Source: Parcubacteria group bacterium Greene0714_7
GTDB taxonomy: Bacteria; Patescibacteriota; Minisyncoccia; Phycocordibacterales; Phycocordibacteraceae
Assembly: GCA_007378985.1 (NCBI GenBank)
Contig: VMHB01000001.1
Location: 64,252 to 128,251, forward strand
Reading direction: 5' to 3'
Length of the DNA stretch: 64,000 nt
Shown here in pieces: positions 5,606 to 48,550 of the stretch; the stretch's first letter is position 1; each line of letters starts with the position of its first letter. The notes beneath the pieces are model-generated. The model made no database searches. It saw only the letters and a list, made by a program, of their open reading frames with translations, and was not told where the DNA came from. Position numbers and translations under genes: made by a program.

Positions 5606-7900
5606 ATGCACACACAAACGTATAGAGTAAAAGGAATGCATTGTGCTTCGTGCTCCTCGACCATCGAGAAGACTTTTAAGAAAGTGGATGGGGTACATTC
5701 TGCGGAAGTTAATTACGGTACAGAAAAAGCAAAGATTTCTTTTGATCCCTCAAAAACCAATCCTCACGATCTTTCTAAACACATTGAGCCACTTGGATAT
5801 TCATTAGAAGTTCCAACGAGTGCAAATGAAATGGGTATGTCGGAGAGTGAACATGCAGCTCATTTAGGTTTGAATCAGTCTAAAAAAGAGAAATTAGCGG
5901 AGGTGGCTGATATGCGAACAAAAGTGCTTTCCGCCATTCCTATCGCCGTCTTCGCCGCTTTCGTCATGGGTTGGGATATTCTTGCCGAGTACAGTATCAC
6001 TCCGGCGATGAGCTATACACTCAAAGAATTTTTCCATCACTTACTCCCAATACTTGCGACCTATATTTTGTTTGTGGTTGGTACGCCATACTTACTTGGT
6101 TTTTATAGATTCTTACGCTATGGAAAGGCGAACATGGATACCCTGATTGGTATTGGTACCACCGCCGCCTTTCTATACAGCTTTGCAGTTACGGCTTTCG
6201 AGGAAACACTCAGGCCTTTTATCAATGTTGACTATCAATACTACGATGTGACCATTGTAGTTATTACCTTTATTGCACTTGGTAAATATTTGGAAGCTCG
6301 ATCGAAAATAAAGACGGGGGATGCTATCGAGAAGCTTCTCAATCTTCAAGCTAAAACCGCTTTGGTCATTCGAGATGGAAAGGAAATAGAGATCTCGGTC
6401 AACGACGTTACACATGGAGATCTAATTATCGTTAAACCTGGTGCGAAAATTCCGGTTGATGGCACTATCACAGAAGGTTCATCCTTTATTGATGAGTCGA
6501 TGGTCACGGGAGAGCCGATGCCAGTAGGGAAGAAGATCGGAGACAGCGTTGTCTCCGGAACCATAAACACAAGCGGATCATTCACGTTTAAAGCAACAAA
6601 GGTTGGGTCAGAAACATTGCTCGCCCAGATCATAACAATGGTCGAGGATGCCCAAGGGAGCAAAGCCCCTATTCAGGCACTTGCAGACAAAATTTCGTCA
6701 ATCTTTGTGCCCATTGTTCTTGTGATTGCGTTTCTTACGCTTGGTGCATGGCTCATTGTAGGGTCACAGTATTTGGGTTTCTCTCAGGCACTTTCATTTG
6801 GCCTTGTGTCGTTTGTTGGAATTCTCGTCATTGCGTGTCCGTGTGCTCTAGGACTTGCAACTCCCACAGCAATTATTGTCGGAGTCGGTAAAGGTGCAAA
6901 AGAGGGCATTCTTATCAAAGACGCCTCTACTCTTGAAAAACTTCACAAGGTGGACACGGTTATTGTGGACAAAACTGGCACTATTACTGTCGGCAAACCA
7001 ACTCTGGTTGATATTCAAAATCTCTCAAGCGTAACGGATGATGAACTGGTATCGATTCTTGCTTCGCTTGAGAAAAAATCAGAGCATCCGATTGCACGTG
7101 CGATTGTGAACTACGCTGAGGAGAAAAATATTCCTGTATCCACTATTTCAAATTTTGAAGGAATACAGGGTAAGGGTCTCAGGGGAGTAGTGAACGGCAC
7201 CGAATACTTTGTAGGTAATGCAAAACTTGTGGGCGATCTTAAGGTTTCATTTGAAGCTAGTACGCTGAACAAGTTTACTTCAGAAGGGAAGACACCCGTT
7301 ATTCTCACGACAAAAGAAAAAGTCTTAGGTTTTGTTATGGTGGCAGATGAAATAAAACCCGAATCAAAACAAGCTGTTGCCAATCTTCACAAACTGGGAG
7401 TTAAGGTGGTTATGCTTACGGGAGACGATGAAAAAGCTGCGAGATACATGGCATCGATGGTTGGCATCGATGATGTGGTTGCTCACGTGTTGCCACAAGA
7501 CAAATTGGCGAAAATAAAAGAATTGCAATCGCAAGGTCGAGTGGTTGCTATGGCGGGTGATGGCGTGAATGATGCACCAGCACTTGCCCAAGCAGATGTG
7601 GGCATCGCCATGGGCACGGGTACTGATGTAGCAATAGAGTCAGCGGGCATTACGCTTCTTGGCGGTGATATTTCAAAACTGGTGAAAGCCATTAGGCTTT
7701 CCAAGATCACCATGCGGGGGATCAAACAGAATCTCTTTTGGGCCTTCATCTACAACATTATCGGTATTCCTCTTGCTGCGGGAGTCTTATACCCAGTCTT
7801 CGGATGGCTCTTAAATCCAGTGTTTGCAGGATTTGCTATGGCGATGTCGTCGGTGTCGGTAGTGTCGAATTCATTACGAATCAAAGGTAAAAAATTATAA
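5606..7900 (+). CDS. copA: Copper-translocating P1B-type ATPase
   Basis: N-terminal HMA domain (GMHCASC), CPC transmembrane metal site, DKTGT phosphorylation motif, GDGVNDAP hinge. Confidence 0.9.
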
Positions 7901-7909
7901 ATAATTTTT

Positions 7910-8923
7910 ATGAACACACATACCTACACATTCCACGTCTCTGGCACGCATTGTCCGTCATGTAAAATCTTCATTGAGGACACCTTGAATGAGCATAGTG
8001 GTATTGGACAAACGTACGTTGATTTGAAGAGTAAAACTGTCTCCCTTGAGACTACTCTTGATGAAAGTCAGCATACGCTGGCCAAGATACTAACCGAGAA
8101 AATAAAACAGAATGGGTACTCACTTTCTGTTGAGAAGGAAGCTAAAGAGAAAAAAGACACTGGCGTCATTTGGCAGGCACTTCCGATTGGACTCGCATTT
8201 CTTGCACTTTTCTTTATTGTGCAAAAATCAGGAATCCTCAATTTTGGTTTGGGCGGAACGGTGACCCCTGTCACTAGTTTCATAATTGGGCTCGTTGCGT
8301 CGGTGTCGAGTTGTCTTGCGGTTGTTGGGGGGCTTGTTCTTTCTCTCTCAGCAACAGTGTCTCAGGACACAGTAAGTGACGTAAAACCAATGATGCTTTT
8401 CCATGGCGGAAGACTAATCAGCTTCGCAATACTTGGCGGTGTCCTGGGTGCAATAGGCAGTGCAATTGGTATCAGCTTTACGGTGACTGCAATTCTTGGA
8501 ATTATTGCATCAACAGTGATGATTCTGCTCGGACTTAATCTTGTGGGGATTTTTGAGAAGAATATAATTGCACTCCCTTCTGGGGTTTTTAGCTTGTTCC
8601 GCAAGATAGAGCATAAGACGGTGGCCCCATTTTTGATTGGTGTCGGTACTTTTTTCCTACCGTGCGGATTTACTCAGGCAATGCAGGTAGCAGCGCTTTC
8701 CAGTGGTTCGTTTCTTTCGGGATTTATGATCATGACTGCATTTGCTCTTGGCACATTGCCAATGCTTGCACTTCTGTCGTTCGGTTCCGCCTCATTTGCG
8801 GGGTCAAAACACGCTCCACTTTTCTTTAAGTCTGCGGGTGTGTTGGTTATAGGTCTTGGGGTTTTCGCACTGCTCGCAGGGCTTGCTGGGCTCGGTATTA
8901 TCAATCCGTTATTTAACATATAA
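7910..8923 (+). CDS. HMA-domain protein fused to a polytopic membrane domain (DsbD/CcdA/TauE-like permease fold)
   Basis: N-terminal GTHCPSC heavy-metal-associated motif followed by about 8 glycine-rich TM helices; third gene of the cop operon. Confidence 0.5.
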   Translation: MNTHTYTFHVSGTHCPSCKIFIEDTLNEHSGIGQTYVDLKSKTVSLETTLDESQHTLAKILTEKIKQNGYSLSVEKEAKEKKDTGVIWQALPIGLAFLALFFIVQKSGILNFGLGGTVTPVTSFIIGLVASVSSCLAVVGGLVLSLSATVSQDTVSDVKPMMLFHGGRLISFAILGGVLGAIGSAIGISFTVTAILGIIASTVMILLGLNLVGIFEKNIIALPSGVFSLFRKIEHKTVAPFLIGVGTFFLPCGFTQAMQVAALSSGSFLSGFMIMTAFALGTLPMLALLSFGSASFAGSKHAPLFFKSAGVLVIGLGVFALLAGLAGLGIINPLFNI

Positions 8924-8940
8924 TCTTTATTAAGTACTGT

Positions 8941-9339
8941 ATGCAAAAGAACATACTCATATCCATTGCCATCAGCATTGCTCTCATTGGGGGAACTCTC
9001 TACTTCGTTTCTACGAGGCCAGCGTCTTCAAACGGTGAAGTTGTAGGGTCGCAGAATATCGAAATTAGAGATGGCATACAGTACGTGACTATCACTGCAA
9101 AGGGTGGCTATTCTCCGTATGTTACAGAAATCAAAGGAGGGTTGCCTACCAAGTTGATTGTGAAGACAAATGGAACATATGATTGCTCGGCATCGCTTGT
9201 AGTTCGCTCTGTCGGTTTCCAAAGCATATTACAACCAACAGGTGAAGAAGTTATAGATTTAGGTACTCCAAAATCTGGCGATACAGTGCAAGGCGTGTGC
9301 GGGATGGGAATGTATAGTTTTCAGCTAAAAGTTAGCTAA
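8941..9339 (+). CDS. Membrane-anchored small extracytoplasmic protein, possibly cupredoxin-like, cop-operon associated
   Basis: N-terminal TM anchor; C-terminal Cys/Met cluster (VQGVCGMGMY); position after copA. The fold assignment is speculative. Confidence 0.35.
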   Translation: MQKNILISIAISIALIGGTLYFVSTRPASSNGEVVGSQNIEIRDGIQYVTITAKGGYSPYVTEIKGGLPTKLIVKTNGTYDCSASLVVRSVGFQSILQPTGEEVIDLGTPKSGDTVQGVCGMGMYSFQLKVS

Positions 9340-12190: not shown

Positions 12191-13510
12191 TCAGGTTCCT
12201 TCTTCCCACGAACTCAAATAGTGTTTTTGTTCTTCGGTGAGGGTATCAACGTAGATGCCCATAGAAGCGAGTTTTAAGTTAGCGACACGGTTTTCTATTT
12301 CTGGATCAATTTCATACACGCCAGCTTTTAGTGTTGCTTTATTGGCAACAACCCACGATGAAGCAAGTGCTTGTGTTGCAAAGCTCATATCCATAACGGA
12401 TGCGGGATGACCTTCAGCGGCTGCGAGGTTTACTAAGCGTCCTTCGCCAATAACATAGAGTCTTTTACCGCCTACGAGGTATTCATCAACATTTTTGCGC
12501 ACATCTTTTGTCACTTTTTCAGCCATTGCTTCAAGTGCTTTCAGATTTATTTCCACATCAAAGTGACCTGAATTGCAGAGAATAGCTCCGTCTTTCATGG
12601 CAGGGAAGTGTGTTTTGTCGATGACATTGATGTCCCCTGTGAGTGTGCAGAAGATGTCGCCAATTTTAGCGGCCTCTTTCATGGGCATAACCTCAAACCC
12701 GTCCATAACGGCTTCAAGAGCCTTAATAGAATCCACTTCAGTAACTATAGTGCGTGCTCCCATACCACGAGCGCGCATGGCAAATCCTCGTCCGCACCAG
12801 CCGTATCCTCCAACCACAACTACTTTGCCGGCGATGAGGGCGTCAGTTGCACGAATGATACCGTCCAAGGTTGATTGGCCAGTACCGTAGCGATTGTCAA
12901 AAAGATTTTTTGTTTTTGCATCGTTCACGGCAACAACAGGTATTTTTAGTGCACCATCTTTTGCCATTGCACGAAGGCGGATGACTCCTGTGGTTGTCTC
13001 CTCCATGCTTCCCATAATTTGTGTTGCTTTCTCAGGGTGATCGCGGTGAATGGTAGTTATGAGGTCTGCCCCGTCGTCCATGGTGATAACAGGGTTGTGT
13101 GCAATAGCGGCTTCAATGTGTGAGAAGAATTTTTCTTTATCTTCAGCGCGAATGGCATACACGGGGATGCCGTAGTCGACAACTAAGCTCGCTGCGACAT
13201 CGTCTTGTGTTGAAAGGGGATTGGAGGCTACTAGGAGCACATTAGCGCCACCAGCTTTTAGTGTACGCATGAGGTTTGCGGTTTCAGCGGTGACATGGAG
13301 GCATGCTGAAAAATTCATATCTTTAAACGGGAGTTCTTTTTCAAATTGTGCACGCACATCACGAAGTACCGGCATGTCGCGTTCTGCCCATTCGATTCTT
13401 TTCTTTCCAAGAGGTGCGAGAGCTATGTCTTTAATATCGTATTCCATCCCGTTGTGAAGTTTGGCGTCATTTCCTGCAGGGTTTTTATTAGAGTTTGTTG
13501 AGATATCCAT
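12191..13510 (-). CDS. ahcY: Adenosylhomocysteinase (S-adenosyl-L-homocysteine hydrolase)
   Basis: 439 aa; NAD-binding GYGWCGRG; SAHH-typical N-terminal region. Confidence 0.9.
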
Positions 13511-20589: not shown

Positions 20590-21183
20590 TCATTGTTGCA
20601 ACAGAACTGCACCAGGGAATAGATGTATTCGATCCAGTGGGAAGAGTCTCACTACGGGACGACCAATTATGTCAGCACGCGGTAGGTTGCCCCACGACCT
20701 TGAGTCAGAACTTTCGTTGCGGTTGTCACCCATGACGAAATATTCGTCGCTTCCGAGTGTGTATGTTGCGTGTTCATCACGCATTCGAGATAGATCGATG
20801 AAAGATTGATCAATAGTGAACGGCTCTGTGTTGGCTCCATGAATGATTATTTTTTTATTTGTAGTTTCAATTTTTTCATTTGGTAAACCTATGATGCGCT
20901 TGATGAAAAATGTTTTTGGGTCTTTAGGGTATCGCATAATGATGACATCGCCACGCTTTGGGTCTTCAAAGTGGTAGGTAAGTTGATCAACAATAAGATA
21001 TTCATTGTTTTCAAATGTGGGCACCATAGATGCACCACGTACAACAAAAGGTTGTGCGATAAACCAGCGAACAGGTATAACAATGAGGAGTGCGATGAGC
21101 GCGAATTTGATTGTGTCGGTGACAATCTCACGGCGCGTTTCATTCATAGAAAGAATTGTACGCTTCGCCACTATTGCGCGCAA
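20590..21183 (-). CDS. lepB: Signal peptidase I
   Basis: N-terminal TM; catalytic Ser box VRGASMVPTF; Lys box; GDNRNESSDSR box E. Confidence 0.85.
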   Translation of the reverse strand: MRAIVAKRTILSMNETRREIVTDTIKFALIALLIVIPVRWFIAQPFVVRGASMVPTFENNEYLIVDQLTYHFEDPKRGDVIIMRYPKDPKTFFIKRIIGLPNEKIETTNKKIIIHGANTEPFTIDQSFIDLSRMRDEHATYTLGSDEYFVMGDNRNESSDSRSWGNLPRADIIGRPVVRLFPLDRIHLFPGAVLLQQ

Positions 21184-24980: not shown

Positions 24981-27449
24981 ATGGCTCGAAAGAAAGTGCA
25001 AACAGCACCTGAAGATAGTACTCCGGAGGCCGACATGGGCCTTCGTGTCATTTCGCATTCAATTGTTACTGAAATGCGCGAGTCGTACCTCGACTACGCA
25101 ATGTCCGTTATTACTGCGCGCGCTTTGCCTGATGTGCGCGACGGTTTGAAGCCAGTACATCGTCGCATTCTCTACACCATGCATCGCATGGGTCTCTCTG
25201 CTACCTCAAAACCTCGAAAATCGGCTGCGGTAGTTGGAGATGTCTTGGGTAAATACCATCCACACGGCGACACCGCTGTGTATGAAGCAATGGTTAAGAT
25301 GGCGCAAAATTTCACCATGCGATATCCCTTGATTATTGGTCAAGGAAACTTCGGCTCAATCGATGGCGACTCAGCTGCTGCTATGCGTTACACCGAAGCA
25401 AAGATGTCAAAGCTCTCTGCTGATCTTCTGTCTGACCTTGATAAAGACACTGTTGAATGGCGTCCAAACTACGACGGTACGCAAAAGGAGCCCAATGTTC
25501 TTCCTGCTGGAGTTCCAAATATTCTTTTGAATGGAACTCTTGGTATTGCTGTTGGTATGGCAACTAATGTCCCTCCACATAACTTAGGTGAAGTAGTAGA
25601 TGCCACAGTGCATCTTATTGATAATCCGGATGCAACTGTCGATGAGCTTTTACAATTTGTTCAAGGACCTGATTTTCCAATTGGAGGTATCGCATTTAAT
25701 TCAAAAGATATTGCACATGCATATGCAACAGGGCGCGGGCCTGTGGTGGTCCGAGGTAATGCAGAAATCACTGAGGATAAAAAGGGTAATAACATCATCC
25801 TTATTACCTCTATTCCGTACCGTGTAAACAAAGCTGACCTAATCATAAATATTGCAGATTTAGTGCGTGACAAAAAACTTGAAGGTGTACGAGACCTCCG
25901 TGACGAATCAACGACTGATATTCGTGTTGTGGTGGAATTGAAAAATAATGCCCAACCACAGCAGGTATTGAACTACCTGTATAAGCACACACAGCTTGAA
26001 GATGCGTTCCATTACAACATGGTGCTTTTGGTAGATGGTGTGCCTGAAACACTCTCGCTTTCCGCAATTCTTTCATATTTCATCGAACACAGAAAAGTTG
26101 TTGTAAAGAGGCGCACTGAGTTTGATTTGAAACGTGCACAAGAGAGAGAGCATATTTTGCTTGGACTTAAAAAAGCACTCGATCACATAGATGAAATCAT
26201 CAAATTAATTAAGGCGGCGAAGGATGTGCAGGGCGCTCACACTGATCTCCAAAAGAAATTCAAATTCTCTGAGCGCCAAGCTACAGCAATTCTTGAAATG
26301 CGTCTACAGAAACTTGCAGGCTTGGAGCGCAAAAAAATCGAAGATGAGTTGAAAGAAATACAAGCATTCATTAAGGAGTTAGAGGAAATACTTTCTTCAA
26401 CGAAGAAAATAATGAAGGTGGTGAAGACTGAGCTCTTGGCGCTTCGCGAGAAATACGCTGATGAGAGACGTACCAAAATTGTAAAGGGTGGCATTAAGAA
26501 TATGTCAGATGAAGACCTTATTCCTGACGAAGCTGCGATGCTCACACTTACTTCTACTGGGTATGTGAAGCGCACCAGCCCAAGCGAATATAAGAAGCAA
26601 AATCGTGGTGGTGTGGGAGTTGTTGATTTAAATACAAAGGAAGAAGATTTCGTGACACGATTCTTGGAAGGCTCCACACATGACTCGGTCTTGTTTTTCT
26701 CTGATCGTGGAAAGGTGTATCGAACACGCATGTATGAAGTACCTGAAGGAAGGCGAGCCACAAAAGGTAAATCAATTATGAATGTACTTCCGCTTTCTGC
26801 GGAGGAGCGCATTACTTCAATAGTTGCATTGACTAAAAAATCAGCAACATCTTCCTTCATGCTCATTACCGAGAAAGGTGTTGCAAAGAAAGTGAAAGCA
26901 GATCAGTTTGAAGATGTACGCCGTTCAGGCATCATCGCGATGTCACTACAAGCAGGAGATAGTTTGATTGCTGTTCTTCCTGTTGAGAAAGGTGAGAGTG
27001 TTATTTTAGTAACCGCAGGAGGTCAGGCAATTCGCTTTAAGGAATCAGACATTCGTGAGATGGGACGCACCGCTGGCGGAGTGCGCGGTATGAAGTTTGG
27101 AAGTAAGGACAAGATAATTGCAGCAGACGTTATTAAGAATGAAAAAGAGAGTGAGGTTTTGGTTCTTGCTGATATGGGATACGGTAAGCGAACACCTGCA
27201 AAGGAATACAAAATACAAAAGCGTGGTGGCTCTGGTATTAAAACGGGCAAGGTAACTCCAAAAACAGGTTCAATTATTGCAGCGCGCGTCGTTACTCCAG
27301 AAATGTCAGAAATAATCGTTGCATCAAAAAATGGACAAGTGATTCGAACTGAACTCTCACAAGTGCCAACACTTTCGCGCGCCACACAAGGTGTTCGTAT
27401 TATGAAGCTTCGTGAAGGTGATAAAATTGCAGCGTTCACCGCTTTTTAG
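24981..27449 (+). CDS. gyrA: DNA gyrase subunit A
   Basis: [13 protein letters not shown], active-site Tyr region [14 protein letters not shown]-like region, C-terminal beta-pinwheel repeats; 822 aa. Confidence 0.95.
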
Positions 27450-27520: not shown

Positions 27521-27679
27521 TTTTCTGTATGATATATCATACAGAATTTGTGGATGACTCAAGGGGAAAAGAGGGATTTCCCCTCATCCCTAAAAGCTAA
27601 CAGCCAAAAGCTAGAAGCTAGGCTGTACCTTGTTCTTGCTCCGTGGAAAATTCAACCACCGACACACTTGCGGGGTACA

Positions 27680-28207
27680 ATGCAAAGAATGTTCCTGAAC
27701 CCTACAGATATTCTTTCCCATCTCCCGATAACCGCGCATGCAAAAGTGGGAGATTTTGGCGTAGGTGCTGGGCACTATTCATTTGCTTTGGCTGAAAAAC
27801 TTGGCAGAGAAGGTACTATTTACGCTTTTGATGCGTTTGGTCCAGCACTCGATGCTATTCGTCGGAAAGGGGAACACTATCCAGCTGAGTTTCATACATT
27901 GCAGTCGGATTTGAATGAGCCTATACCCATCGGAGATAACCTTCTCCATATTGCTGTGGTGGCAAATATACTTCACCAAATTCGTGAGCGTGAGCGTTTT
28001 GTGATGGAGGTTGCGCGCGTGGTACGCCCTGGGGGTACTGCACTTGTTGTTGATTGGATCTCCTCATTTAAAAATATGGGACCTTCATCTGAGGCCGTGC
28101 TAGCCCCAGGGGAGGCGGTCCGTCTTTTCAGGCAAGCAGGTTTTGAAACTGGGGACATGCTTCCTGCGGGAACGCATCATTTCGCATTTCTTGCGACGTT
28201 AAAGTAA
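27680..28207 (+). CDS. Class I SAM-dependent methyltransferase
   Basis: Motif I VGDFGVGAGHYSF and a post-I acidic residue. Start placed at MQRMFLNP because the longer ORF from 27548 would translate the leader repeat. Confidence 0.65.
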   Translation: MQRMFLNPTDILSHLPITAHAKVGDFGVGAGHYSFALAEKLGREGTIYAFDAFGPALDAIRRKGEHYPAEFHTLQSDLNEPIPIGDNLLHIAVVANILHQIRERERFVMEVARVVRPGGTALVVDWISSFKNMGPSSEAVLAPGEAVRLFRQAGFETGDMLPAGTHHFAFLATLK

Positions 28208-28383: not shown

Positions 28384-29673
28384 ATGAAGCTTTTTAATGT
28401 AATCGTCGTTGGTATCTTTCTTGCGCTCGCCATTAGTGCAGTTATCATTTTTTCAACGTTCACCGCACTAAATAAAAATAGTGTTGGCAAAGTGTCTGTG
28501 TGGGGTTCGCTTCCTCTCTCTACTTTTGAAGCAGTAATGGGGGGGTTGCAGGAAGGAAACAGCACCTATGATGGTGTTACGTACACATTTGTTCCTGCTT
28601 CTGAGCTCATTCCAAATCTTGTTGAAGCCATTGCTGCCGGCAGGGGTCCTGACTTGGTTATTTTTCCTGCTGAATATTTACTCTCTCAAGGCGACAAGCT
28701 TGTCTCTATTCCTTATAGCAATGTGAGTCGGCGTGAATTTCAGAACACCTTCATTCAGGCAGGCGAGGTGTTTTTGGCCAATGATGGCATAAAAGGAATT
28801 CCATTCACCGTTGATCCTTTGGTGATGTATTGGAATCGTACATTGTTTGCAAATGCAGGCCTTGCACAGCCACCAAAGTTTTGGGATGAACTTTCTGACA
28901 TAGCTCCGCGTCTTACAAAAACACAAGAAAACGGAACATTGACTCAAAATTCTGTTGCACTTGGTGCGTGGGATAACATCTTTCACGCAAAGGCTATTTT
29001 TCTTACACTCGCCCATCAACTTGGAAACCCTGTCGTTGGAAGAAATAGTGAAGGGGTATATGTATCTATGATTTCAGAAGGAGCTGTGGAGAGCGGTGCC
29101 CTCACGCCTGTAAATTCAGCTGTTCGTTTTTATACTGATTTTTCTGATCCAGTAAAACCTGTGTATTCATGGAATCGCTCAGCACCTGAATCGCGAAATG
29201 CATTTCTTGCAGGAGGGGTTGCCATGTATTTTGGTTCCGTGAGTGAACTCTTGGGGATGCGTCAGGCAAATCCAAATCTAAACTTTGATGTGGCACCAGT
29301 CCCGTCAGTTCGAGGTGGTGGAGCAGGGGTTTCGGCAGAGGTGACAGCGCTCTCGATTCCTCGAGGAAGTCGCAACATTGGGGGATCACTTGCCGTTGCA
29401 CTCGCACTTACCTCTGCAAAGTCACAGCAAGCGCTCTTATCGCTTATTTCACTTCCTTCAGTTCGAAGAGACGCGGTATCAAATAATCCAAATGATCCAT
29501 ATGGTGCAATGTTTCAAAATGCCGCAGTACTTTCGTTTTCGTTTCTTGATCCAGACCCATCAGCAACGGACGCAATCTTTAAAAGGATGATGGAAAGCGT
29601 ATCCTCTGGCAAGCTTCGGGTAACAGAGGCATCACAAGGTGCACATAGCGAATTGCAGGCACTTTTGAGGTAA
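28384..29673 (+). CDS. Extracellular solute-binding-protein-like protein (SBP family 1 / MalE-like fold) with N-terminal TM anchor
   Basis: N-terminal TM; DLVIFPAEYL and PKFWDEL-type motifs typical of cluster-B sugar-binding proteins; no adjacent ABC permease or ATPase. Confidence 0.55.
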   Translation: MKLFNVIVVGIFLALAISAVIIFSTFTALNKNSVGKVSVWGSLPLSTFEAVMGGLQEGNSTYDGVTYTFVPASELIPNLVEAIAAGRGPDLVIFPAEYLLSQGDKLVSIPYSNVSRREFQNTFIQAGEVFLANDGIKGIPFTVDPLVMYWNRTLFANAGLAQPPKFWDELSDIAPRLTKTQENGTLTQNSVALGAWDNIFHAKAIFLTLAHQLGNPVVGRNSEGVYVSMISEGAVESGALTPVNSAVRFYTDFSDPVKPVYSWNRSAPESRNAFLAGGVAMYFGSVSELLGMRQANPNLNFDVAPVPSVRGGGAGVSAEVTALSIPRGSRNIGGSLAVALALTSAKSQQALLSLISLPSVRRDAVSNNPNDPYGAMFQNAAVLSFSFLDPDPSATDAIFKRMMESVSSGKLRVTEASQGAHSELQALLR

Positions 29674-29744
29674 GAATTAGGGTATATAGTGTTTAGGCGA
29701 TGCCTCATTGGATCCGTAGGGATCATAAGAAAACAAAAAACAAT

Positions 29745-30110
29745 ATGAAAAAAATATTTGCACGAGCTCTCCCGTTTTCTCTGTCGTTAGCATTGCCTTT
29801 TGTTGTACTTGCATCTGGTTGCGATAGTGCAAGCGCTGGAGGTCTTTGTAATCCTCTTGGATATAATTCTCTGTGGGAATTTTTACAGCGAATGCTCCAG
29901 TTGATTACTCAAATTGGTTTTCCTGTGATTGTGCTTTTCATTGTATTCATAGGGTTTAAATTCATCACTGCCGAAGGCAAACCTGAAGAGATTGCAAAAG
30001 TTAGAAGTCTCTTTTTCTGGGCGATCGTTGGCTCTTTAGTGGTGCTTGGAGCTCAAGCGCTTGCACTTGCAATACAGGCAACTGTTAACGATATTCAGGC
30101 TGGCTTGTAA
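29745..30110 (+). CDS. T4SS-pilin-like (TrbC/VirB2-type) small membrane protein, paralog 1
   Basis: Signal peptide, Cys-containing stretch, then two hydrophobic helices separated by a short charged loop (TAEGKPEEIAKVRS). Confidence 0.5.
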   Translation: MKKIFARALPFSLSLALPFVVLASGCDSASAGGLCNPLGYNSLWEFLQRMLQLITQIGFPVIVLFIVFIGFKFITAEGKPEEIAKVRSLFFWAIVGSLVVLGAQALALAIQATVNDIQAGL

Positions 30111-30118
30111 AAATATTT

Positions 30119-30553
30119 ATGACACTGACATCGATTATTAACACCATGACGGATGTTGTGACGTTAGCGGTTCCGTGGGTTCTCGTATTTTTGATTTTTT
30201 ATTGGAATGCTTACAAAATTATTTTTGACGCCGATAACGCAGAAAAAAGAAAACAGGCACTCCCTCGTCTTATATGGAGTATTGTTGCGCTCGCTATAAT
30301 CTTTTCTTTAGGAGGAATCGTCAATATAATTAGCAACACACTTCTTGGCTCAAGTAGTTCAACATTTGCACCTTCTAGTTCTTCGTCTCAGTCGCCTGAA
30401 CTTTTAGGTGGATCAAGGGCTGGAACATTAGGTACGCCAGCACCAGGTACTTCTCCAACCACTCCACGCTCACCAATTAACCCAAATATAGACCCAAGAG
30501 GAGAAATACGAACCCTACCTTCTTCTGGAGCTAATCCAGTGCGGGATATTTAA
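30119..30553 (+). CDS. T4SS-pilin-like small membrane protein, paralog 2, with a Ser/Pro/Thr-rich C-terminal tail
   Basis: Two TM helices around a DADNAEKRKQ loop, same spacing as the neighbouring paralogs; low-complexity S/P/T tail. Confidence 0.45.
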   Translation: MTLTSIINTMTDVVTLAVPWVLVFLIFYWNAYKIIFDADNAEKRKQALPRLIWSIVALAIIFSLGGIVNIISNTLLGSSSSTFAPSSSSSQSPELLGGSRAGTLGTPAPGTSPTTPRSPINPNIDPRGEIRTLPSSGANPVRDI

Positions 30554-30571
30554 AAAATTATATATTTTCAT

Positions 30572-30925
30572 ATGAAAAAAATAATCGGAATGACTTTTAT
30601 TGGCGCAACGGCACTCGTACCAGTTTCAACATTTGCAGCTGCAAGTACCATTCAGGATGTGCTCCGTAACCTTAACCTTCCACTTCAGCTCGCAACAACG
30701 CTTGTAGTAATGCTCGCACTTCTCCTCTTCTTTTGGGGTTTAGCTATGTATGTTTTTGGCTCATCTAATGATGAAAAGCGGAAAAAGGGTATACCTATGA
30801 TGATTTGGGGCGTTGTTGCTCTATTCGTGATGCTCTCTATCTTCGGTATCATTAATATGCTTCAGGCTACCTTTGGGGTTGGTTCTGGAACCCTCCAAAT
30901 CCCAACCATTAGTAGAGGGCAATAG
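30572..30925 (+). CDS. T4SS-pilin-like small membrane protein, paralog 3
   Basis: Signal peptide (…FAAAS); TM1-FGSSNDEKRKKGI-TM2 core nearly identical to paralog 4. Confidence 0.55.
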   Translation: MKKIIGMTFIGATALVPVSTFAAASTIQDVLRNLNLPLQLATTLVVMLALLLFFWGLAMYVFGSSNDEKRKKGIPMMIWGVVALFVMLSIFGIINMLQATFGVGSGTLQIPTISRGQ

Positions 30926-31046
30926 GCTATTGTGGTTCTCCACATCCCGTTTATACATTTTCCTTTGAAACAGGGGGAATGATACAATTAAGGCTGACTT
31001 ATTATTCAGGAGATTTATCTCGTTATATTTAATTGTTCGTAATTAT

Positions 31047-31421
31047 ATGAAAGGATTTTTAAGAACTGGTATTGCCACTGTCGTCGCTCTTGCTCCATTT
31101 GCTGCATTTGCTGCAGGCGGTGTTGATAACGCACTTACAAAAATTGGTGCTTTGATTACACAAGCAACACCAATTGTCGTTGCTCTTGCTCTTCTTGCCT
31201 TCTTCTGGGGTTTGGTTACCTACATCTTCGGTTCTTCAAATGATGAAAAACGAAAGAAAGGTATCCACATAATGGTATGGGGCATTATCGCTCTCTTCGT
31301 CATGCTCTCTGTCTTCGGTATCATCAATGCTCTTCAGAGCACATTAGGTGTTGAAAATACAACGACAATTCAGATTCCACAGGTGACTCCAGGTACTAAT
31401 GGAGGAGGAACTGCTCGTTAG
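31047..31421 (+). CDS. T4SS-pilin-like small membrane protein, paralog 4
   Basis: Signal peptide (…FAAFAAGG); the same FGSSNDEKRKKGIHIMVWG core. Confidence 0.55.
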   Translation: MKGFLRTGIATVVALAPFAAFAAGGVDNALTKIGALITQATPIVVALALLAFFWGLVTYIFGSSNDEKRKKGIHIMVWGIIALFVMLSVFGIINALQSTLGVENTTTIQIPQVTPGTNGGGTAR

Positions 31422-31497
31422 GATTTTCCAAGTCTTGAATAACCACAAGAATTAAGAAGTTGTTTGGTTCATTTAAGTCTTTTGTATTGATTAGTTA

Positions 31498-31700
31498 TGG
31501 ATGTACTGTCTAAATTCATTGGTAAGATTGTTGAGTTGATACTCAACGGTATTCATTGCACATGCAGATAATCCTGAGGAAAGAAAAAAAGGAGAACGAA
31601 AGATGCTTTGGGGGATCATTGGATTCTTCATCATGGTATCTGTTATAGGCATCCTGACTGCGGTTACGGGAACCTTCGGGGTTAGTTTACCGAGGTAATT
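31498..31700 (+). pseudogene. Decayed fragments of a fifth pilin-like paralog
   Basis: A short N-terminal ORF (MDVLSKFIGKIVELILNGIHCTCR*) followed, out of frame, by EERKKGERKMLWGIIGFFIMVSVIGIL..., matching the loop and TM2 of the paralogs. Confidence 0.5.
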
Positions 31701-31724
31701 AATACAAAAAAAGAGATTAATAAA

Positions 31725-31755
31725 ACACTCCGCGAATAGCGGAGTGTTTTATATT
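31725..31755. terminator. Intrinsic terminator (aaaacactccgcgaatagcggagtgtttta)
   Basis: 9-bp stem with flanking A-tract and T-tract. Confidence 0.6.
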
Positions 31756-31789
31756 TGAAGTGTGTAGAGAGATGTAGGGTGACTTGGTC

Positions 31790-31986
31790 ACGAGTCACTA
31801 ACTATTTTGCTTCGCTCGCTCGCAAAATACTAAGTGCTCTCGAAGCCTCTCGGCACGATTTGCTAATCGCCCAGCTCGGCAATTTTGCCTTATGCTTCGC
31901 ATAAACAAAATTATGCCTCCGCCTTTCAAGTCCTCACGCACGTAAAGCAGTTTGCGTGCTTTCCGCCTACACTCGTAAACTCATTG
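31790..31986. repeat. Non-coding repeat modules downstream of tRNA-Leu(TAG): an inverted partial copy of the conserved hairpin element (31790-31870) and a repeat-unit core whose end copies the local T-arm (agctcggcaattttgcc...ccgcctttcaagtcctcacgc)
   Basis: 31874-31940 aligns with 2807-2877, except that the terminal T-loop mimic is ttcaagtcctc (Leu-TAG T-arm) instead of ttcgaatccctc (Val T-arm). Confidence 0.55.
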
Positions 31987-32274: not shown

Positions 32275-32327
32275 GCGCCCGTAGCTCAGTTGGTAGAGCG
32301 ACTCCCTCTTAAGGAGACGGTCGCAGG
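32275..32327 (+). pseudogene. tRNA-Lys-like 5' fragment (acceptor, D-arm, anticodon arm CTT, 5' T-stem) with no matching 3' half
   Basis: GCGCCCG-TA-GCTCAGTTGGTAGAGC-G-ACTCC-CTCTTAA-GGAGA-CGGTC-GCAGG, followed at once by the conserved hairpin element. No TTCGAAT-CCTGC-CGGGCGC found downstream. Confidence 0.5.
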
Positions 32328-32334
32328 ATTTTCT

Positions 32335-32580
32335 TGTTTTGTGCGTGCCGGAGCCATGTCGCTTTGCGACGGCGAGGCGGGGTCGAGAGCACTTAGTATT
32401 TTCTGAGTCTTACGAGAATAATACTTAGTGAATCGTGACCACAAAAAATAAAAAAGCACTACGCAAGTAGTGTTTTTTGCTTGTGTGCGTGCCGGAACGA
32501 TGTCCTGAGTCTCGAAGGACCGTGAGGCGGGGCCAGCGACCGAGACGAGCGACGGCGAGTCGAGAGTCGTGGCCACAAAT
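32335..32580. ncRNA. Two tandem copies (one complete, one variant) of a conserved about 100-nt hairpin element (gccggagccatgtcgcttgcgacgg-cgaggcggggtcgag-gcacttagtatttt...aaaatacttagtga-gtgaccacaaa)
   Basis: 32345-32450 matches 10293-10395 with substitutions confined to the loop of the long cacttagtatttt/aaaatacttagtg stem. 32480-32570 shares the ends and has a different central hairpin. Calling it an RNA is inference. Confidence 0.4.
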
Positions 32581-32682
32581 TCTCCTTATTTGAGGAACTG
32601 CGAGCCGAGCGATTAGAGAATCGTGCCGAAGCCCTACCGAGCCCAGAGGGATCAATTATGGATGCTAGTATTTTAGTTACCT

Positions 32683-41821: not shown

Positions 41822-41907
41822 GCGTCGGTACTCAAGTGGTCAACGAGGGGAGACTGTAAATCTCCTGACTTCGGTCTTCGTTGGTTCGAATCCAACCCGG
41901 CGCACCA
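41822..41907 (+). tRNA. tRNA-Tyr (anticodon GTA), CCA encoded
   Basis: Acceptor GCGTCGG/CCGGCGC, anticodon stem-loop GGAGA-CTGTAAA-TCTCC, long variable arm, T-arm TTGGTTCGAATCCAAC. Preceded by a clpB terminator hairpin at 41793-41822. Confidence 0.8.
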
Positions 41908-47055: not shown

Positions 47056-47934
47056 ATGAGAAAGATACTGATACTCCTTCTCCCGATAGTATTTTTCATG
47101 CCACTCGTGGCATTTGCTGCAGTTCAGCAAGACCCTTCAGCACTCTTAAGTGGGAGTGGTGGGGGATTAGTTCCTCAGTGTGAGGGAGCAGAGTGTAGGG
47201 CGTGTGATCTTTCCGAACTTGCAAACAATGTCATTAACTTCGCTGTTGCCTTCTCTGTCATTGTTGCCACTCTCATGTTTGCTTATGCAGGTATTCTGTA
47301 TGTAACCGCAGCAAGTAAGCCAGACCAAGTAAAGAAAGCACACGGCGTGTTTGTGAATGTATTTGTCGGCTTATGTATTGTGCTTACCGCATGGCTTCTG
47401 GTTAATATTACTTTTTCGGTGTTGACGGGGAAAGGTATTAGTGTTTGGACAAAAATATCTTGCGTGGGGAATCCTGAGTCCGCGGCTTTCCCAGATGCAC
47501 CTGGTGCACAAGCCTCTCGTCCTCAAGTGACAGGTAGTGGGACTCCAGTTACCCCAACAAATAGTAATGATAATCTTGCGGGAGTTCATCCCGACCTTGT
47601 CCGACTCGTCAATGCAGCTCATGCTTGTTCCGCTATTCAGTTTCAGGTGACGAGCGGTTTTCGTCAGAGGTCTAGCACTGCTACAGATTCACGACATATT
47701 CAGGGTATGGCTGTCGACGCTCATCCTATTATTAGAAGCATAGTGAGCTATACAGGAGGTTCATGTGTACCTCCTAATGCAAACTACCGAGCAATAAATG
47801 ACGCATTTGCCTGTGGCAGTCGGCAGACCGGTATTCCTTATCAGTGGGGGGGTAGTAGTCCAACCTTCATGCAAAACAGGTGTTACGATTCGATGCATTT
47901 TCAGTTACCCCGCTCGGTCTACCCTAATGGTTAA
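47056..47934 (+). CDS. Fusion protein: N-terminal T4SS-pilin-like domain plus C-terminal M15 (VanY/D-Ala-D-Ala carboxypeptidase-like) zinc peptidase domain
   Basis: Signal peptide, Cys-rich LVPQCEGAECRACD, TM1-SKPDQVKKAHG-TM2 pilin architecture, then a Pro/Thr linker and an SxHxxGxAxD-type motif (DSRHIQGMAVDAHP). Confidence 0.5.
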   Translation: MRKILILLLPIVFFMPLVAFAAVQQDPSALLSGSGGGLVPQCEGAECRACDLSELANNVINFAVAFSVIVATLMFAYAGILYVTAASKPDQVKKAHGVFVNVFVGLCIVLTAWLLVNITFSVLTGKGISVWTKISCVGNPESAAFPDAPGAQASRPQVTGSGTPVTPTNSNDNLAGVHPDLVRLVNAAHACSAIQFQVTSGFRQRSSTATDSRHIQGMAVDAHPIIRSIVSYTGGSCVPPNANYRAINDAFACGSRQTGIPYQWGGSSPTFMQNRCYDSMHFQLPRSVYPNG

Positions 47935-48550
47935 CGAATATCTAGCTCGTATGAAATTATCTCCAACTCTCATAGTTGCCTTCGGGGCCTTATTGCTCAT
48001 TATCGGATTGAGCATATTGTATTTCTTTTCTTTTGGATCAAACGCCACCGAGACAGCTACCACTAATGAAGATTTCTTCTCAGCTACATTTCCATTCTTT
48101 GGAACGAAAGATGATCGAAGTCCCGTTTCTACTACTTCACAGGGAGTACCGGTGCAGAGTTCAAAAACTTTAGAGGTGCGTACAGTTACTGGGGACATTT
48201 TGTTTGTAGAAGATTTTACTAAAGACCCTGATGTTATTGCCGAGCCAGATAATCGAGTTTTTTATGTTCTGTATCCCAATGCCACAAGTACCAATCCATC
48301 GGAATTTGATTATGAGATTAACTACTTTCCCTCAGATCACTCTTTCTCATTGGTCTTAGCAGGAGAGCCTCTTGCTGAGGTAAGAAGAAAAGCAGCTGAT
48401 GACTTAGCTAAAAGAGTCGGTCTATCTCAAAAAGAATTATGCTCAATCGTTGCCACAGTTCAAACTCCTCGTTGGGTGAATCAATATTATGCCGATAAGA
48501 ACCTTGGTCTTCCGGGTTGCCCTGGTTCAGTGAAATTCCAAGGTGACTAG
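47927..48550 (+). CDS. Hypothetical membrane-anchored protein (overlaps the preceding stop by 8 nt)
   Basis: Start ATGGTTAA overlaps the upstream stop; N-terminal TM (LIVAFGALLLIIGLSILYFF). Confidence 0.45.
   Translation: MVNEYLARMKLSPTLIVAFGALLLIIGLSILYFFSFGSNATETATTNEDFFSATFPFFGTKDDRSPVSTTSQGVPVQSSKTLEVRTVTGDILFVEDFTKDPDVIAEPDNRVFYVLYPNATSTNPSEFDYEINYFPSDHSFSLVLAGEPLAEVRRKAADDLAKRVGLSQKELCSIVATVQTPRWVNQYYADKNLGLPGCPGSVKFQGD

Follow-up and report, generated by a model that had tools for sequence, protein, structure and literature searches.

In a 64-kb stretch of the Parcubacteria group bacterium Greene0714_7 chromosome (contig VMHB01000001.1; the whole stretch is called the window here, and all coordinates below refer to it), a gene for a membrane-anchored, MalE-like solute-binding protein (SBP) is followed by five tandem genes for small pilin-like proteins. 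Gene order and spacing indicate that positions 28384-31752 constitute one operon, SBP-A-E-C-C-B-terminator, where the letters denote pilin types, and comparison with related genomes indicates that this operon is conserved across the class Paceibacteria ('Parcubacteria'). We regard as established the family membership of the encoded proteins, their topology, the structure of the operon, its conservation and gene order, as well as the lack of transporter and type IV secretion system (T4SS) core genes nearby. As to function, the most likely reading, to which we give about an even chance, is a host-contact surface module in which a T4SS encoded at another locus handles the pilin-like subunits.

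Layout of the operon

In the open reading frame (ORF) list, the operon is located on the + strand, with gyrA (24981-27449) on one side and a tRNA cluster on the other. Its first gene (28384-29673) encodes the 429-aa SBP, which is of oligosaccharide type by Pfam, AlphaFold2 and Foldseek. The array follows with P1 (29745-30110; type A), P2 (30119-30553; type E), P3 (30572-30925; type C, a lineage-specific middle copy) and P4 (31047-31421; type C, a tandem duplicate of P3), and closes with a type-B gene (31497-31698) that is broken in this record by a 56-nt deletion at 31545/31546. A perfect 14-bp hairpin directly after this last pilin gene (31720-31752) was found by hairpin search and is the probable operon terminator; it is the single strong hairpin terminator in the operon. 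All ORF positions given in an initial annotation of the window, made from the sequence alone, were reproduced, and since ORFs, Pfam matches and topology were all recovered, the observation is not a chance pattern. The remaining window is ordinary housekeeping chromosome, with genes for FtsZ/FtsA, IF2, ClpB, TopA, DprA, SerRS, ParB, RelA and others.

The small proteins belong to a VirB2/TrbC-like pilin family

Family membership was assessed with Pfam profiles, for which the gathering scores are 26.6 bits (PF18895, T4SS_pilin) and 27.9 bits (PF04956, TrbC/VirB2). All four intact proteins exceed the former: P1 with 43.2 bits (E-value 4.3e-11), P2 with 32.4 (1e-7), P3 with 29.5 (8.1e-7) and P4 with 32.5 (8.9e-8). 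P1 additionally passes PF04956 (32.5 bits, 1e-7), and its database homologues are named 'TrbC/VirB2 family protein' or 'pilin'. A precomputed PF18895 match is also attached to the intact fifth gene found in identical ENA and Logan contigs (L085 and L086). The initial annotation had proposed T4SS pilins on topology, and the profile search places P1-P4 in the VirB2/TrbC-like T4SS_pilin family, above curated thresholds. NCBIfam models NF045849 (Mbov_0395 family, from integrative and conjugative elements (ICEs) of mycoplasmas) and NF045890 (pLS20_p028) are matched weakly by P1-P4 (E 1e-8 to 4e-3), with all scores below the curated cut-offs (best 34.7 bits vs 40). The five tandem genes, one broken here, also fall within the definition of a Patescibacteria pilin array, namely 2-11 low-identity pilin genes in a Patescibacteria genome.

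By hydropathy, P1 and P4 show two hydrophobic helices preceded by a signal-peptide-like segment. In P3 the N-terminal hydrophobic stretch is weaker and lies below the threshold used, and P2 and the type-B protein have the hairpin without a leader peptide. The two helices are joined by a short Lys/Arg-rich loop, which is seen both in hydropathy profiles and in the AlphaFold2 model of P1 (helices 3-20, 43-75 and 80-118). In P2, the two hydrophobic helices are followed by a Ser/Pro-rich tail of ~70 aa. The topology of signal peptide, first transmembrane helix, charged loop and second transmembrane helix that had been ascribed to all four proteins therefore holds in full for P1 and P4 and, as regards the hairpin, for all of them; the leader is missing from P2 and weak in P3. 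The charged-loop motif FGSSNDEKRKKGI, previously noted in two of the four, is indeed shared by P3 and P4. Some 7 kb upstream of the operon, in a conserved neighbourhood, lies a gene for signal peptidase I (Peptidase_S26; 20590-21183, - strand). It is a possible candidate for processing of the pilin leaders, and its location is perhaps a coincidence.

Pairwise identity within the array ranges from 22 to 58%, the highest value being that between P3 and P4, whose genes share a 190-nt direct DNA repeat of 73% identity. P2, P3, P4 and the fifth gene product recognise one another by BLAST, and P1 is related to them at the profile level only. The P1 ORF can be read from 29700 (136 aa) or from 29745. 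Some 70 homologues have a length of roughly 120 aa and begin their alignment at the second Met (MKKIF...), which makes 29745 the probable true start. Mature type-A proteins contain a Cys pair, located in P1 between the signal peptide and the helical hairpin, that is mostly kept or lost jointly across homologues (one aligned sequence retains the first Cys only), and this joint presence or absence suggests a disulfide loop. A lipoprotein reading of type A was rejected, since the alignment holds no consistent lipobox before the first Cys and the pair fits a disulfide loop. A holin reading was likewise rejected, with one marginal holin match (E 0.39) and a context that is not phage-like.

The same hairpin domain also occurs elsewhere in the window. 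A gene at 47056-47934 (+ strand), whose public gene call starts at a later Met, encodes a ~290-aa protein in which a signal peptide and a PF18895 hairpin are connected through a Ser/Pro/Thr linker to a C-terminal Peptidase_M15_4 domain (VanY/CwlK-like). It is followed by a ~200-aa gene without a family match (47927-48550, + strand). Three such two-gene modules are present in one ENA assembly: the window copy (in an identical contig), L090 10001-11537 and L091 10001-11544. Paceibacteria homologues of the fusion protein keep the N-terminal pilin domain and vary in the C-terminal half. The fusion may represent a cell-wall hydrolase displayed on, or targeted through, a pilin module.

Gene content and order are conserved in relatives

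A scan of one genome per species identified at least 566 genomes that encode a relative of the SBP, and the best 80 loci were compared. A pilin hidden Markov model was built iteratively from P1-P4 and run on all ORFs of these loci; as just ~15 of 400 matches fall outside arrays, the model is specific. The homologues all derive from metagenome-assembled genomes of Patescibacteria, within the Paceibacteria/Parcubacteria radiation (Kaiser-, Adler-, Taylor-, Zambryski-, Wolfe- and Nomurabacteria). At least 2.5 kb of sequence downstream of the SBP gene was available in 64 sequences (the window and 63 related loci, with SBP identities of 36-76%), two of which represent one genome twice (L003 and L009). 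Same-strand pilin-like ORFs directly follow the SBP gene in 64/64. An array of 3-8 pilin ORFs is present in 63 of them (4 genes in 21, 5 in 15, 6 in 16, 7 in 8, 8 in 2 and 3 in 1), and L022 has a split array. The distance from the SBP stop to the first pilin start is frequently -3 to +20 nt. The same layout appears in the independent public gene calls, with precomputed Pfam matches, of three relatives whose SBPs are 50-71% identical.

Array members were typed by clustering of the BLAST network. Type A (~137 aa, with a leader and TrbC-like) heads the array, as one or two copies, in 77 loci, and type B (~89 aa, without a leader) is the last gene in 56/60 loci. The middle positions are occupied by lineage-specific clusters, frequently as tandem duplicates. 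The window has the order A-E-C-C-[B] and its nearest relatives A-E-C-C-B. The fixed A...B order suggests differentiated roles for these proteins and not a set of interchangeable antigenic variants. The paralog expansion that the initial annotation had seen in the array is thus replaced by an old, ordered operon, with A first and B last, found after the SBP in all 64 sequences.

Immediately 5' of the SBP gene, a class-I S-adenosylmethionine-dependent methyltransferase gene is found in 67/80 related loci and in the window (27548-28207, + strand). The gap between the two genes has a median of ~32 nt across loci and is 176 nt in the window. The methyltransferase may be part of the same transcription unit as the SBP.

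The broken fifth gene is probably an artefact of this record

The stretch 31497-31698 reads in two frames. Two-frame translation and tblastn with the intact B genes of relatives show that both pieces belong to one type-B gene, an orthologue of an 85-aa terminal pilin. This copy lacks residues 18-36, which form the first hydrophobic helix, and its frame is shifted; base-level comparison resolves this as the 56-nt deletion. The two frame-disrupted remnants of a further paralog reported initially therefore come from one broken gene and not two. An intact 85-aa B gene is present at 13114-13371 of a 100%-identical ENA contig (L085), in a Logan contig from a separate read set (L086) and in L087, a strain that is 95% identical at the nucleotide level; L085 and L086 encode an SBP identical to that of the window.

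Over the stretches compared, the window is 100% identical to ENA contig ERZ27284376 k119_636176 (291,945 bp), apart from a few discrete differences. In addition to the break in the B gene, a 50-nt deletion near 32322 takes the 3' half of tRNA-Lys(CTT) and part of a terminator, leaving a remnant (32275-32325; only 33.9 bits in Rfam); ARAGORN calls this tRNA in L085 and does not call it in the window. A third deletion, of 43 nt at 41905/41906, takes the terminator hairpin just after tRNA-Tyr. In all, the ~42 kb compared hold three deletions and one substitution, which lies beside the second deletion. Three deletions against a single substitution, the loss of a conserved gene and a tRNA, and the agreement of two assemblies on an intact B gene point to an assembly or curation artefact. 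On this comparison, the break in the fifth gene is probably such an artefact of the source record and would at most be a very recent private event, and it is no evidence of paralogue decay. Assembly faults in this record probably explain both the apparent pseudogene and the truncated tRNA-Lys close to it. The decay of a fifth paralog is not borne out, since L085, L086 and the 95%-identity strain all carry the gene intact.

The pilins do not diverge faster than the solute-binding protein

The initial annotation had read the array as a recently expanded set of diversifying surface pilins, shaped by antigenic or host-range selection, with surplus copies pseudogenised. Such selection was assessed by comparing the divergence of pilins with that of their neighbours. 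Median best-match identities to relatives are 65% for GyrA, 40% for the SBP and 31% for the upstream methyltransferase, and 35%, 31%, 38%, 41% and 42% for P1, P2, P3, P4 and type B, respectively. Compared with L001, the closest relative at species level, identity amounts to 77-97% for flanking genes, 71% for the SBP and 59-78% for the pilins. The operon lies at the fast end of the local range of divergence, and not dramatically so. At closer range, P1, P3, P4 and B are 99-100% identical to those of the 95%-identity strain; the one variable part is the P2 tail, rich in Ser and Pro (89% identity, with indels).

Since the pilins are no more divergent than the SBP (medians of 31-42% vs 40%), and since close-strain variation is confined to the P2 tail, diversifying selection on the set is not supported. 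Several features do fit it: the lineage-specific and often tandemly duplicated middle positions, the 58% identity of P3 and P4, copy numbers ranging from 3 to 8, the P2 tail that varies between close strains, and the host-range versatility that has been proposed for such arrays (PMC12102498). However, types A and B are conserved throughout the class in both sequence and position, P1, P3, P4 and B are nearly invariant between close strains, and the supposed pseudogene is intact in identical public contigs, with three short deletions and one substitution in the window over ~42 kb. We consider it very improbable that the array is a diversifying set of this kind, and diversification is perhaps conceivable for the copy-number turnover of the middle positions and for the P2 tail.

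Covariation between operon members was assessed with a partial Mantel test controlling for GyrA distance, which yields a weak and partly non-specific signal that serves as a hint only. The divergence of types A and B covaries with that of the SBP and mutually (partial r 0.21-0.27, p = 0.001). No covariation was seen between type A and the methyltransferase, S1 or LactB3, or between type B and the methyltransferase (partial r -0.15 to 0.02).

The operon-leading gene encodes a sugar-binding-type protein

The SBP matches Pfam SBP_bac_1 (1.9e-21) and SBP_bac_8 (1.9e-17) and has one N-terminal hydrophobic anchor (residues 1-30 by hydropathy; a helix at 2-29 in the AlphaFold2 model). The model is confident (predicted local distance difference test score 87.9), and its best Foldseek match in the PDB is the mannooligosaccharide-binding protein CpMnBP1 (4r9g, E 1.5e-23), followed by MalE-type proteins. 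A profile search of PDB sequences returned the same top protein (4r9f, 7.8e-23). Both the two-lobe fold and the profile matches are those of substrate-binding proteins of ATP-binding cassette (ABC) importers, and the membrane-anchored MalE-like SBP described initially is confirmed by Pfam match, anchor and sugar-binding fold. More than 1000 homologues exist, of which the 120 best are 48-99% identical and ~429 aa long. An alignment of 26 members contains 59 invariant columns, among them several Trp, Arg, Asp and Asn, a pattern that indicates strong constraint on the sequence.

Compared with the MalE-like importer proteins CpMnBP1 (4r9g/4r9f) and Streptomyces MalE (8art), the SBP has the same two-lobe fold (TM-score ~0.7) at ~20% identity. 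It differs from them in being anchored by a transmembrane helix and in being an operon-mate of pilins, with permease and ATPase genes not found nearby in 80 genomes. SBPs can act as receptors: ChvE works with VirA in induction of the Agrobacterium vir genes, and PrgZ captures pheromone in the pCF10 system. Both resemble the present case in that an SBP-fold protein is functionally linked with a T4SS-related process. In neither, however, is the SBP gene in the pilin operon, and PrgZ is a peptide-binding protein (family 5) that still uses the Opp permease. The suggestion in the initial annotation that the SBP may serve as a surface receptor remains plausible, and the strict coupling of SBP and pilin genes adds to its appeal.

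Importer and T4SS core genes are not found near the operon

Partners of either component were sought in the window and around the SBP genes of relatives. Among ~55 window ORFs scanned, ABC importer permease or ATPase, VirB4, VirD4, VirB6 and PrgI were not found, and the sole ABC protein is a fused exporter (916-2694). Within 8 kb of the SBP in the 80 loci, the pairing of a Walker-A motif with LSGGQ occurred only in one fused, exporter-sized ORF (L036). The recurrent neighbour clusters of these loci that were scanned with Pfam include no transporter or T4SS family, and T4SS core genes were not found alongside two other PF18895 loci of the same ENA assembly. Two absences that had been noted at the outset are thereby upheld, that of a cognate ABC permease or ATPase near the SBP, in the window and in 80 relatives, and that of VirB4, VirD4 and VirB6 from the window.

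A functional link between the SBP and the pilins is likely from these comparisons, because the adjacency has no exceptions, the junctions are tight or overlapping, a single terminator is present, importer genes were not found within 8 kb and the divergence covaries weakly.

A candidate host-contact module

From the operon we infer pilus assembly by a distant T4SS, a role for the SBP, and host contact. The five small proteins would be VirB2/TrbC-like helical-hairpin subunits that are inserted into the membrane via the Sec pathway, with cleavable signal peptides on at least P1 and P4. A T4SS of VirB4/VirB6 type, encoded elsewhere on the chromosome, would extract and polymerise these subunits into a surface filament or contact structure used on a host cell. 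The membrane-tethered, co-transcribed oligosaccharide-type SBP would act at the same interface, where its role may be to recognise a glycan on the host surface or to capture a saccharide derived from the host; it does not resemble a component of a local ABC importer.

Several results weigh against this host-contact reading. A T4SS core gene was not found in the window or in any compared locus. A Foldseek search with the P1 model returned no PDB match at E <= 0.001; the top match is ATP synthase subunit c (E 1.6), and the Aeropyrum conjugation pilus (8dfu) ranks 12th (E 5.9). The model also resembles type III secretion system needle proteins and similar structures, which is uninformative, and helical hairpins are too simple for this fold search to discriminate. 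A type-A pilin profile searched against PDB sequences gave chance matches only (to G-protein-coupled receptors), and in a limited literature search a pilus built of PF18895 proteins was not found reported for any Patescibacterium. The whole neighbourhood is also syntenic across the class (lactamase-fold gene, gyrA, methyltransferase, SBP, pilins, rbfA and infB), the part from gyrA to rbfA/infB in 60-70/80 loci, which makes the adjacency of SBP and pilins weaker as functional evidence. Finally, SBP divergence covaries with that of unrelated neighbours as well (methyltransferase 0.24, LactB3 0.19, IF2 0.33).

The last two results bear on the main rival explanation, in which the SBP is an ordinary ABC-importer component with partners encoded elsewhere and its adjacency to the pilins reflects the frozen gene order of reduced Paceibacteria genomes, with no functional connection between the two. 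The synteny extending from gyrA to rbfA/infB fits this explanation, as does the covariation of the SBP, which is as strong with unrelated neighbours as with pilins, and the canonical sugar-SBP fold with its typical motifs is what an importer protein would have. Frozen order does not as readily account for start and stop codons of the SBP and first pilin genes that often overlap or nearly abut, for a sole strong terminator placed after the last pilin, or for zero exceptions in 64 sequences at 36-76% SBP identity. ABC proteins, moreover, number ~3 +/- 3 per Patescibacteria genome, and the list of retained transport genes names K02027 and none of the permeases (PMC7137472). We judge this explanation possible, if rather unlikely.

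The results on P1 and on the missing T4SS genes bear on a different explanation, that the PF18895 proteins are small integral membrane proteins other than pilus subunits and, jointly with the SBP, make up a membrane complex that takes up or senses a saccharide from the host and does not depend on a T4SS. Scans of the window and 80 relatives found no T4SS core gene alongside the array, P2 and type B have no signal peptide, and the fold of the hairpin is not diagnostic. Enzymes of ~300 aa, such as the Peptidase_M15 fusion at 47056-47934, carry this hairpin domain as their N-terminal module, so that it can serve as something other than a filament subunit. Against such a complex, we know of no transporter composed of two-helix hairpin subunits plus an SBP, and P1 passes the TrbC/VirB2 model itself. 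The same Pfam family adjoins virB4 in 1,135 assemblies (PMC12102498) and lies inside the essential T4SS cluster of Southlakia (PMC10633639). A T4SS-independent complex is, in our estimation, quite improbable.

Other features of the window

Downstream of the operon, three pairs of inverted-repeat arms (25-29 nt, 85-92% complementary; 31785-31878 vs 32383-32441 and 32601-32629) bracket the tRNA-Leu/tRNA-Lys region, with 32-nt direct repeats nearby at 32329-32360 and 32473-32504. At the position matching this repeat region, the relatives L001 and L004 have HNH or LAGLIDADG endonuclease genes. The repeats near the tRNAs resemble either a small family of intergenic repeats or what is left of a mobile element. 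A copper-handling cluster unrelated to the operon is located at 5606-9339 (+ strand) and encodes a heavy-metal P-type ATPase with an HMA domain, a DsbD_2-HMA membrane protein and a cupredoxin-like protein.

Relation to known systems

Pilin arrays in Patescibacteria have already been described. Quinonero-Coronel et al. (2025; PMC12102498) surveyed 3,035 Patescibacteria genomes, with PF18895 and PF04956 as pilin profiles, and found VirB4 in 2,417/3,035 assemblies (80%). VirB2-like pilins were present in 1,948 of the VirB4-positive assemblies and near virB4 in 1,135, and many assemblies had pilin genes away from virB4. These authors identified 441 arrays of 2-11 pilin genes with a mean identity of 25% and a maximum of 54%, most abundant in Microgenomatia and Saccharimonadia and not in Paceibacteria, and proposed that they provide host-range versatility; the words solute, substrate-binding and ABC are absent from the article. 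The operon described here resembles these arrays in its tandem PF18895/PF04956 genes, low identity, chromosomal location and lack of a relaxase context. T4SS pilins are also among the most highly expressed secreted-protein genes of Paceibacteria that parasitise methanogens (Kuroda et al. 2024; PMC10936435), and Tian et al. (2020; PMC7137472) name the sugar SBP K02027 as one of a small number of transport genes kept throughout Patescibacteria.

In Southlakia epibionticum, a six-gene array within the T4SS cluster (SEML1_0014-0019) is essential (Wang et al. 2023; PMC10633639), and no SBP is listed within the cluster in the table parts consulted. That array sits beside VirB6, PrgI and VirB4, whereas the present one is detached, is headed by an SBP gene and is ordered A...B. 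Bartonella and Anaplasma virB2 arrays likewise consist of tandem divergent copies and have been proposed to broaden host interaction (PMC12102498). They differ in lying within complete virB operons of intracellular pathogens of eukaryotes, while here the order of types is conserved and the rate of divergence is unremarkable.

With the VirB2/TrbC pilins of Gram-negative bacteria, the array shares the PF04956 match of P1, signal peptides, two helices, a Lys/Arg-rich loop and a mature length of ~90-100 aa, but it is found in a monoderm host, with no adjacent virB3 or virB4, and P2 and type B are leaderless. Profile similarity to the pilins of monoderm conjugative elements (NF045849 and NF045890) is weak and the window is not an ICE context; this similarity fits the reported MPF-FATA descent of Patescibacteria T4SSs. 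A link between the SBP and pilins was not found in a limited literature search, on which basis the invariant SBP-first, A...B-ordered operon, detached from T4SS core genes, appears to be an undescribed variant.

Implications for Paceibacteria

A stronger form of the host-contact reading is that the SBP and the VirB2-like proteins constitute one machine, a pilus- or hairpin-based apparatus in which an SBP without an ABC transporter captures or recognises host glycans at the contact site. We hold this to be unlikely. If true, an SBP would here be put to a new use, and the largest class of Patescibacteria would possess a host-interaction module that spans the lineage. Paceibacteria are both the largest and the least cultivated class of the phylum, and Southlakia, the one genetically tractable relative, is a Saccharibacterium. 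For these organisms, a strictly conserved operon of pilins and a putative sugar-binding receptor is a concrete, testable candidate for host recognition, and the type-A pilin, the type-B pilin and the SBP may be useful as class-wide markers or antigens.

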